Source: Escherichia coli (GTDB lineage Bacteria > Pseudomonadota > Gammaproteobacteria > Enterobacterales > Enterobacteriaceae). From it: a stretch of DNA of 64,000 bases. Positions 50,890 through 51,605 of this stretch are shown piece after piece. Under the pieces are notes generated by a model. It was given only the letters and a program-made list of their open reading frames with translations. It had not been told where the DNA came from and ran no database searches. The translations under genes and the position numbers were made by a program. Where the stretch lies: the NCBI RefSeq assembly GCF_024223415.1, contig NZ_CP100500.1. One strand, 5' to 3'. Every line of letters begins with the position of its first letter. Positions within the stretch are counted from its first letter, which is position 1.

Positions 50890-51230
50890 TGTCTGATGCC
50901 GCACGTAGGCCTGATAAGACGCGGACAGCGTCGCATCAGGCATCTTGTGCAAATGTCGGATGCGGCGTGAACGCCTTATCCGACCTACAAAAACAAATTT
51001 ATCAATGAGTTAGAAATCCCTGTAGGCCTGATAAGACGCACCAGCGTCGCATCAGGCATCTTGTGCAAATGTCGGATGCGGCGTGAACGCCTTATCCGAC
51101 CTACAAAAAAAAATTTATCAATGAGTTAGAAATCCCTTTAGGCCTGATAAGACGCGCCAGCGTCGCATCAGGCATCGTGTGCAAATGTCGGATGCGGCGT
51201 GAACGCCTATCCGACATACACACGCTTAAG
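50890..51230. repeat. tandem array of three ~118 bp BIME-like units (paired REP palindromes plus spacer)
   Basis: unit landmarks gtaggcctgataagacgc at 50904, 51022 and ~51139; each unit also contains gcaaatgtcggatgcggcgtgaacgccttatccgacctac; last unit truncated and abuts/overlaps mutT 3' end. Confidence 0.8.
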
Positions 51231-51605
51231 CTTCGCAATTACCGGTTCATTGGCTGGCGGAAAATCATCGGCATTAAGACCGACTAGCGACATCCACTCA
51301 CCGGGTTGCCCTTCTTTACCCCACGGCTCCCCTTCCCAGCTTTCGACCAGCCAGAACCACAGAGTTATATGCCTGTCCGGGAATTCATATTCCAGTTTTT
51401 CAAATAGCGAAAAATGTTGTGGGGTAATCCCGACTTCTTCCTGAAGTTCACGCACCACCGCCTGTTCCGGCGTTTCGCCCATTTCAATTTTACCGCCGGG
51501 AAACTCCAGTTTATTCGCCATGTGCGCATCTGCTGCGCGACGCGTTATAAAGATTTCATTGTTCTCGTTGCGAATAATACCTACCGCAATTTGCAGCTTT
51601 TTCAT
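51207..51605 (-). CDS. mutT: 8-oxo-dGTP diphosphatase (Nudix)
   Basis: 132 aa MKKLQIAVGIIRNENNEIFITRRAADAHMANKLEFPGGKIEMGETPEQAVVRELQEEVG (Nudix box); last codons (…KRVYVG) lie inside REP-derived sequence. Confidence 0.9.
   Translation of the reverse strand: MKKLQIAVGIIRNENNEIFITRRAADAHMANKLEFPGGKIEMGETPEQAVVRELQEEVGITPQHFSLFEKLEYEFPDRHITLWFWLVESWEGEPWGKEGQPGEWMSLVGLNADDFPPANEPVIAKLKRVYVG

Follow-up and report, generated by a model that had tools for sequence, protein, structure and literature searches.

The convergent genes yacG and mutT of Escherichia coli are separated by a tandem array of repetitive extragenic palindromes (REPs), the last of which overlaps the 3' end of mutT. Here, we describe this array and the mutT terminus in a stretch of 64,000 nt from contig NZ_CP100500.1 (assembly GCF_024223415.1), called the window below; coordinates are positions in this 64-kb window and strand signs are relative to it. 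The array occupies the 321-nt gap from the yacG stop (50885, +) to the mutT stop (51207, -), and the order of genes in the neighbourhood is zapD (49935-50678, +), yacG, mutT and secA (51665-54370, -). Tandem Repeats Finder returns a single array at 50905-51220 with a period of 116, 2.7 copies, 95% matches and a score of 574, and a repeat search of the window gives start-to-start spacings of 117 and 116. The core motif of REPs is matched seven times in the window, where 0.54 matches are expected, and six of these seven matches lie within the array. Together with the matches to Rfam family RF02564 (Table 1) these data confirm the original prediction, made from the letters alone, of a tandem array resembling bacterial interspersed mosaic elements (BIMEs) that fills the convergent gap. 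Its count of three tandem units is also correct, with a period of 116 and not of ~118 bp.

The array consists of three REP pairs, each with a z2-type and a y-type REP (50905-51219), and two 33-nt linkers between them. Every pair is built from a 37-nt z-type REP (GTAGGCCTGATAAGACGC-loop-GCGTCGCATCAGGC), a 13-nt short linker and an inverted y-type REP (iREP; GTCGGATGCGGCGTGAACGCCTTATCCGAC-CTAC), and in the RNA fold each of the six units forms a hairpin. The palindromes quoted previously are thus REPs indeed, with a one-base slip in the letters of the y-type unit, which reads GTCGGATGCGGCGTGAACGCCTTATCCGAC and starts with GTCGG instead of GCCGGATG with GCCGG. The third unit had been called truncated. 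It is in fact a full REP pair that merely has no linker behind it, and its y-type iREP shows a 1-nt deletion (CCTTATCC to CCTATCC) and the tail ATAC instead of CTAC. The GTAG/CTAC tetranucleotide is kept in pairs A and B and lost from both REPs of pair C (TTAG...ATAC), which means that four of the six units retain it. Both linkers contain a perfect consensus for integration host factor (IHF), a consensus that occurs seven times per 64 kb against 2.1 expected and that is also perfect (WATCAANNNNTTR) in the diverged alternative linker of strains MN06021 and EC571; the linkers probably bind IHF. REP copies are numerous outside of this locus as well, since a 941-bp query of the locus has matches at 18 places in the median E. 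coli genome.

Table 1. Features of the yacG-mutT gap and its flanking genes in the window.
Feature	Position	Strand	Basis and remarks
yacG (DNA gyrase inhibitor YacG), 65 aa	50688-50885	+	ORF (open reading frame) list; TGA stop 19 nt upstream of first REP head
REP pair A: z2-type REP with GTAG head (50905-50941), 13-nt short linker, inverted y-type REP ending CTAC (50955-50988)	50905-50988		sequence, repeat families, REP motif, RNA fold
Pair A, match to Rfam RF02564 (naRNA4)	50908-50985	-	78.4 bits, gathering score 59.5
Long linker 1, 33 nt, perfect IHF consensus TATCAATGAGTTA at 51000-51012	50989-51021		consensus scan
REP pair B (extra middle unit): z2-type REP with GTAG head, short linker, y-type iREP ending CTAC	51022-51104		sequence, repeats, REP motif
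Pair B, match to Rfam RF02564	51025-51101	-	84.2 bits, gathering score 59.5
Long linker 2, 33 nt, A9 run replacing A5CA3, IHF consensus at 51116-51128	51105-51137		sequence, consensus scan
REP pair C (adjoins mutT): z2-type REP with degenerate head TTAG, short linker, y-type iREP at 51187-51215	51138-51219		sequence, repeats, REP motif
Pair C, match to Rfam RF02564	51141-51216	-	75.1 bits, gathering score 59.5
mutT (8-oxo-dGTP diphosphatase), 132-aa allele ending KRVYVG then TAG	51207-51605	-	ORF list
Overlap of mutT coding sequence with terminal y REP, 13 nt	51207-51219	-	sequence, RNA folds

The minus-strand reading frame of mutT does end with AKLKRVYVG and a TAG stop, as predicted, and encodes 132 amino acids (aa). 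In plus coordinates the stop lies at 51207-51209, Gly132 at 51210-12, Val131 at 51213-15 and Tyr130 at 51216-18. The stop, Gly132 and Val131 are within the stem of the y REP, and Tyr130, at the former stop codon, corresponds to the REP tail ATAC. The 13-nt overlap takes in only one base of Val129, whose codon (GTG) is the ordinary last codon of the gene. This means that the former attribution of VYVG and the stop to the REP holds for YVG and the stop but not for the valine. Residues 1-129 align with MutT of PDB entry 1MUT at E=6.6e-86 and differ from it only by R89S and L129V, followed by the three-residue tail. At codon 89 (51339-51341) the window has Ser89 (WLVESWEG) where K-12 and the PDB sequence have Arg89 (WLVERWEG). 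The original prediction gave MutT of K-12 as a protein of 129 aa ending KLKRL, which the K-12 records of DH1 and MG1655 (129 aa, KRL at the end) and the PDB bear out, and all 23 of 23 PDB entries with solved E. coli MutT structures represent the 129-aa form.

The two lengths are explained by the reading of a single junction. In K-12, FORC_041 and ST2350 the 129-aa frame reads CGT CTG TAG, followed by GTC(G/A)GATAAGGCG (GTC(G/A)GATAAGG), and its stop is the TAG of the conserved GTAG tetranucleotide of the terminal REP. O157:H7 has CGT GTG TAT GTC GGA TAA and then GGCG, the window has CGT GTG TAT GTC GGA TAG and then GCG, where the REP arm has lost one T and the stop stays in the same codon, and other 132-aa alleles including SF-173 read CGT GTG TAT G(T/C)C GGA TA(A/G). 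In the 132-aa allele TAG is therefore replaced by TAT, three codons are read from the REP stem and translation ends at the TAA or TAG of the REP itself. The junction is of equal length in both alleles and only point substitutions (CTG TAG vs GTG TAT) separate them. The REP-coded tail varies: it is VYVG in O157 and the window, VYAG in SF-173 and UTI89-type sequences (GCC GGA TAA, which in SF-173 is the canonical y-REP sequence) and VYVE in EC958/ST131 (GTC GAA TAA). A separate rearrangement of this junction was seen in E. coli SMN197SH3, where the 7-bp sequence TCTGTAG is tandemly duplicated at the mutT stop and REP head (CGTCTGTAGTCTGTAGGTCGG) and the protein still has 129 aa.

Tandem repeats of 116 bp are a classic cause of collapse or expansion in assemblies and the stop of the window is one single-base deletion away from other 132-aa alleles, so one might suspect that the third unit or the longer reading frame arose by mis-assembly of the repeat or by a sequencing error. 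This is extremely improbable. The 941-bp locus is 100% identical in six independent complete genomes, among them AR_0085, and ~18 further genomes among the best 60 matches have three pairs on other haplotypes. The variant with the deleted T (GGATAGG) recurs in several divergent haplotypes, and the Prokaryotic Genome Annotation Pipeline (PGAP) annotated the identical 399-nt coding sequence of AR_0085 without flags as WP_000736016.1. The same pipeline gives the names zapD, yacG, mutT and secA to the genes of this locus in AR_0085, where the counterpart of yacG is WP_000005042.1.

What changed at this terminus can be judged from related lineages. A scan of species-representative genomes yielded 80 mutT loci, and in E. 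albertii, E. whittamii, Escherichia sp. MOD1-EC7003, Escherichia sp. E1V33 and a divergent representative labelled 'E. coli' MutT has 129 aa without exception (5/5). In these five lineages the stop (TAG; TAA in two) abuts GTCGGATAAGGCG (GTC(G/A)GATAA(G/A/T)G), which is followed by a z REP. Because the same REP adjoins the 129-aa stop in all of them, the REP was there already and the 129-aa state is primitive for the genus. Because the E. coli alleles are equal in length and differ by substitutions only, the 132-aa form is a stop-loss that runs three codons into this pre-existing REP, and no REP has rewritten the gene. The array already adjoined the mutT stop when the species of Escherichia split, and it has stayed there. 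In the original state, which K-12 has kept, GTAG of the REP supplies the TAG stop of the 129-aa protein. In one class of E. coli alleles, including that of the window, TAG then mutated to TAT, with translation passing through GTC GGA in the 5' arm of the REP stem to a new stop in the REP, either as GGA-TAA-GG or, where one T was deleted as in the window, as GGA-TAG-G. A single quasi-palindrome template switch was considered as the common origin of both substitutions and rejected, since the bases between them were not copied.

The original prediction had proposed instead that a REP element rewrote the gene terminus, and in its stronger form this would mean insertion or rearrangement of a REP or BIME at the mutT 3' end of this very strain, with an altered C-terminus that is recent and strain-specific. 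The last codons and the stop are REP sequence indeed, the K-12 terminus is shorter and different and its array has one unit fewer, REPs are proposed substrates of the transposase TnpA_REP, and the insertion sequence IS621 inserts into this array in other strains. Nevertheless, the position of the REP relative to codon 129 is constant in every E. coli allele and in the five other Escherichia lineages, the alleles are separated by two point substitutions with unchanged length, each terminus is combined with arrays of one, two or three pairs, and at least ~1,800 of 5,426 genomes carry the 132-aa form. We consider such an insertion very improbable and the claim of a rewritten terminus as not sustained, given the same REP at the same position next to 129-aa proteins in five non-coli lineages. 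A terminus and three-unit array common to K-12 and other strains had been named as the outcome that would speak for conserved architecture only; K-12 shares neither of the two, and many other strains share the terminus.

The direction of change within E. coli could also have been the reverse, with the 132-aa form ancestral and the 129-aa form derived via TAT to TAG, via gene conversion restoring a GTAGG head or via import. Alleles of 132 aa reside on diverse and mutually divergent haplotypes (O157, B2, MN06021, EC571 and ECCNB12-2 types), internal units of the array hold exactly GTAGGTCGGATAAGGCG, the sequence that conversion would donate, and the terminal REP of K-12 with its GTCAGA, TTTTCG and ATTCGC hardly differs from that of Escherichia sp. 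E1V33. On the other hand MutT has 129 aa in each of the five outgroup lineages and the REP consensus is GTAG, which makes TAG primitive for the genus, and internal units have TTG at codon 129, so that conversion leaves the CTG/GTG difference unexplained. We regard this reverse polarity as rather unlikely. In K-12 DH1 the terminal REP segments are GTCAGATAAGGC, TTTTCGCC and ATTCGCACACG, and their likeness to those of Escherichia sp. E1V33 hints at an old shared allele or at introgression at the locus.

The distribution of both alleles was estimated with a 62-nt query of the O157-type terminus against 5,426 complete E. coli genomes, fetching one representative per identity class. Matches were found in 4,148 of the 5,426 genomes and fall into discrete classes. 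The class with 100% identity (311 genomes; O157:H7, O55:H7) has 132 aa with VYVG and TAA. MutT of 129 aa is encoded in the class with 96.8% identity (~1,360 genomes; ST2350), in that with 90.3% over a 62-nt span (~1,680 genomes; all K-12 derivatives) and in that with 93.5% over a 62-nt span (~70 genomes; Z1323), and three classes matching over a 61-nt span (93.5%, 91.9% and 90.3%; together ~490 genomes; M00057, EC571, ECCNB12-2) have 132 aa and a TAG stop. A query of the B2-type 132-aa terminus added 938 further genomes, including UTI89 and EC958/ST131. Both mutT termini are thus common natural alleles, and the 132-aa form is by no means confined to the strain of the window.

Array size varies as well: locus length is 941 bp where there are three REP pairs, 826 bp where there are two and ~710 bp where there is one. 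An array has one linker fewer than it has pairs, so that a search for linkers serves as a census of copy number. The 43-nt query of the K-12-type linker was found at 1,925 places in 1,870 genomes (median one, maximum three per genome), and a diverged second linker type, which keeps the TATCAAnnnnGTTA core, occurs as a single copy in each of 264 genomes. This corresponds to one pair in ~55% of genomes, at least two pairs in ~39% and at least three in at most ~55 genomes (1%). At least one genome has three linker copies, implying a possible array of four pairs. Pair B is missing in K-12, in O157:H7 and in most genomes. Three-pair arrays are combined with the 132-aa terminus in the window and in 33F4 and with the 129-aa terminus in D8, Combat11I9, ES5 and CU42ET-1. 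Array copy number is therefore polymorphic and independent of the terminus allele, and the window represents the rare three-pair state. The prediction that copy number differs between strains is borne out by one, two, three and possibly four pairs among E. coli genomes. Middle units are differing mosaics of their neighbours (loop GCACC or GCGCC, short linker CTTGTG or CGTGTG, A5CA3 or A9), which indicates recurrent unequal exchange or conversion, and pair number would change by such events between units.

The array is also a target of a mobile element. In FORC_041 (NZ_CP016628.1) a copy of IS621 (IS110 family, ~1,277 bp) sits in the outermost z REP between GTAG and GCCTGATAAG, with a 2-bp AG duplication, at locus coordinates ~1316-2593 and at the counterpart of window position 50908/50909; this site is the known REP target of IS621. 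The yacG-mutT query was covered by less than 80% in 287 of 5,425 genomes, so the locus is interrupted in up to ~5% of them. The exact 77-nt junction of IS621 occurs in strain E2865 too, near 113 kb, and counting insertions at this REP with a junction query across genomes was not locus-specific.

Beyond Escherichia the end of MutT is equally mobile. Across 80 enterobacterial species the tail that follows PPANEPVIxKL shows no conservation, and total length ranges from 129 to 135 aa. Since the tail drifts with mutation of the REP and the C-terminus of the family is unconserved, this suggests that the three extra residues are neutral. A 70-nt segment around the mutT stop was compared with an interior control in 79 species by the z-score of its minimum free energy (MFE), and z < -2 was obtained in 31 species at the stop vs 3 in the control. 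A combinatorial hairpin detector applied to the same 79 species was uninformative (positive in 74% of shuffled controls) and was replaced by the MFE z-score. REPs of other families overlap the mutT stop or the last codons in several genera, and a hairpin element at the end of mutT can be considered the rule in this family of bacteria. REP-shaped MutT termini appear to have arisen repeatedly. The cases from other genera comprise Citrobacter, Klebsiella spallanzanii, Enterobacteriaceae bacterium RIT714, Lelliottia and Enterobacter, including a metagenome-assembled genome. Tails ending QAG-stop and KVG-stop are coded there by G(C/T)CGGATAA, tails ending KAC-stop by GCC TGC TAA of a GCCTGCTAAGCG...CAGCAGGC REP, and TAG stops come from (G)TAGGCCTGC heads. 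A Salmonella-like MutT with the tail RKLRQFAP, 80% identical to the query, was met on QXHL01000193.1, a contig of 424 bp with a coverage of 0.83 that bears the label Alicyclobacillaceae bacterium I2511; almost certainly it entered this Firmicutes assembly as a contaminant from an enterobacterium. On the other side of mutT, at 51620-51689 (-), the window matches Rfam RF02057 (the Salmonella small RNA STnc40) with 81.7 bits at a gathering score of 45, and this match spans the 3' end of secA and the secA-mutT intergenic hairpin AAAAAGGCGCAGAATCCTGCGCCTTTT.

In the sense of mutT the RNA of the array is predicted to fold into six REP hairpins with -156 kcal/mol (z = -7.85 against shuffles), and in the predicted mRNA fold the 5' arm of the first hairpin contains the mutT stop codon. 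Neither an intrinsic terminator nor a promoter consensus was found in the yacG-mutT gap. REPs are reported to terminate transcription partially, in part through Rho, and to block 3' exonucleases, and ~30% of convergent gene pairs have an intervening REP (bioRxiv 10.64898/2026.03.23.713779). If this array behaves as its family does, the hairpins would form a 3'-end block on both convergent mRNAs, with partial termination and protection against 3' exonucleases. The roles in binding of gyrase and IHF and as substrates of REP transposases, to which the original prediction referred, are properties of the family known from the literature, and at this locus the IHF consensus is matched. Some BIME-2 elements are enriched for cleavage by gyrase, which has a preference for y REPs (PMC6379681). 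Furthermore, REPs less than 16 nt from a stop codon stall ribosomes and lower translation, according to the summary of Liang, Rudd and Deutscher (2015) in PMC12306157. At mutT this distance is undercut in both alleles, the stop being inside the 5' arm (132 aa) or identical with the GTAG head (129 aa), and the locus resembles the translation-damping REPs of that summary in an extreme form, with a hairpin starting at or before the stop. Because of this position the hairpin probably slows termination at mutT and damps MutT synthesis in both alleles.

A difference in function between the alleles is another matter. It has to be weighed whether a stop placed 9 nt deeper or the added Tyr-Val-Gly alters MutT, whether copy number tunes mutT and yacG, and whether lineages consequently differ in their A:T to C:G rate. 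The reported stalling at REPs close to stops, with lowered expression (PMC12306157 citing Liang et al. 2015, as far as summarised there), the ~6 kcal/mol that the two 132-aa substitutions add to the terminal hairpin in RNA folds on the background of the window, and a correlation of REP presence with convergent-gene expression (bioRxiv 10.64898/2026.03.23.713779) would fit such a dimorphism. However, the REP is at distance zero or less from the stop in both alleles, hairpin energies overlap between the allele classes, and the tail is free to vary (VYVG, VYAG, VYVE) in a protein family with a hypervariable C-terminus of 129-135 aa, which is the pattern of neutrality. A functional dimorphism is thus improbable. 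The specific proposal that the two termini, and perhaps pair number, set different MutT levels via REP-dependent stalling with tagging by transfer-messenger RNA (tmRNA) or via altered stability of the mRNA 3' end is likewise quite doubtful. If it were true, a single base of GTAG would give K-12-like and O157/B2/ST131 lineages heritably different rates of A:T to C:G mutation. An effect of the alleles on MutT output would have a bearing on mutation-rate variation between lineages, but nothing found points there. Selection of the substitutions for extending the terminal hairpin was considered too and rejected, as natural alleles overlap (-17 to -31 kcal/mol with 132 aa, -17 to -26 kcal/mol with 129 aa).

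Taken together, the locus is likely explained by an ordinary BIME array that has long been flush with the mutT stop, a stop-loss allele and an independent change in pair number. Several points weigh against this reading or narrow it. The proportions of roughly 59% of genomes with 129 aa and at least 33% with 132 aa leave ~6% (~340 genomes) unclassified and are estimates from identity classes and sampled representatives, in a database rich in laboratory K-12 and clinical clones. B2 and O157 lineages have MutT of 132 aa and K-12-like lineages MutT of 129 aa, and the terminal REP of the latter closely resembles that of Escherichia sp. E1V33. Part of the allele distribution in E. coli may therefore come from recombination, reversion, conversion from internal units (GTAGGTCGGATAAGG) or import. 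Formation of 3' ends, stabilisation of mRNA, stalling of ribosomes and binding of IHF or gyrase are all deduced from the behaviour of the REP family, and the published supplements searched contained no locus-specific functional data for mutT or yacG. Predicted hairpin stability fails to separate the alleles, and hence there is no sign of selection for structure.

The variation at this locus is ordinary and natural, a well-resolved case of known phenomena, and its practical consequences are small. Besides the 129-aa MutT of K-12, to which all solved structures belong, there is a second common allele, and its 132-aa product should not be taken for an annotation error. A REP pressed against the end of a gene donates the stop codon and catches translation once this stop is lost, which helps to explain the C-terminal variability of MutT across Enterobacteriaceae. 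For typing, the 116-bp unit and the single-locus linker offer a simple marker whose states are given by pair number (one, two or three), by two linker types and by an occasional IS621 insertion.

Both phenomena behind this case, strain-variable copy number of BIMEs and GTAG REPs that donate stops, have already been published, and RefSeq annotation already holds both MutT lengths. A literature search combining mutT and REP returned only papers on typing by REP-PCR (polymerase chain reaction) and none on the 129/132-aa dimorphism of MutT, and the copy of the curated MG1655 record that was inspected has no repeat_region feature in the yacG-mutT gap. BIME-1 elements are single copies of z1 plus y with a conserved L linker that contains an IHF site, BIME-2 elements are tandem copies of z2 plus y in strain-variable number, and atypical BIMEs are multi-copy chimeras that combine components of both (classes of Bachellier, Gilson and Hofnung in the summary by Ton-Hoang et al. 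2012, PMC3333891). With BIME-2 the array shares alternating inverse z2 and y REPs, a short linker, near-identical tandem copies whose number varies between strains (one, two or three pairs) and the intergenic site between convergent genes. Each pair matches the Y-l-Z2 model of Rfam over its full length with 75-84 bits vs 59.5, and the z unit has 37 nt as compared to the 29-nt z1 of a BIME-1 at 21429-21457 of the window. It differs from BIME-2 by an inter-pair linker which has a perfect IHF consensus as in the L linker of BIME-1 and yet is a single-locus sequence, and by the loss of both GTAG tetranucleotides from the pair next to mutT. The z2-type units and the tandem repetition distinguish it from BIME-1 in turn. 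The long linker was considered as a dispersed L motif of BIME-1, and this was rejected because, at blastn sensitivity, E. coli genomes contain no other copy of the 43-nt linker. The canonical L at 21394-21428 shares only the ATCAATGrrTT core with the linker of the array. The textbook BIME-1 to which it belongs (21360-21457) is composed of a y iREP (GCCGGATGCGGCGCGAACGCCTTATCCAGCCTAC), the 35-nt L linker with the IHF consensus AATCAATGGATTG (21406-21418) and a z1 REP (GTAGGCCTGATAAGCGTAGCGCATCAGGC). In the array, z2-S-y pairs like those of BIME-2 alternate with BIME-1-like junctions of y-CTAC, IHF-consensus linker and GTAG-z, and atypical (chimeric) BIME appears to be the best label for it.

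Two further systems are comparable. RF02564 (naRNA4) describes the 77-nt Y-l-Z2 unit of REP325 (Qian et al. 2015, PMC4550694), whose HU binding and role in the nucleoid are disputed (Harris et al. 2026, bioRxiv 10.64898/2026.03.23.713779). All three pairs match this 77-nt covariance model from end to end and are in tandem with constant spacers as in REP325, but there are three units instead of six, the spacer is another one and the flanking genes are the convergent yacG and mutT instead of the tandemly oriented yjdM and yjdN. Binding and cleavage by TnpA_REP require GTAG (PMC3333891), and pair C is without both GTAGs; the stop-loss mutation would therefore also hit the TnpA_REP recognition element of this pair. 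Finally, GTAG REPs that donate stops to flanking reading frames were described by Di Nocera et al. (2013, PMC3733652), and the TAG stop of the 129-aa allele, which comes from GTAG of the REP, corresponds to them. In contrast with those cases the two states of mutT are alleles within one species that are related by a single-base change in GTAG, and the new stop of the longer allele comes from the REP stem (GGATAAGG).

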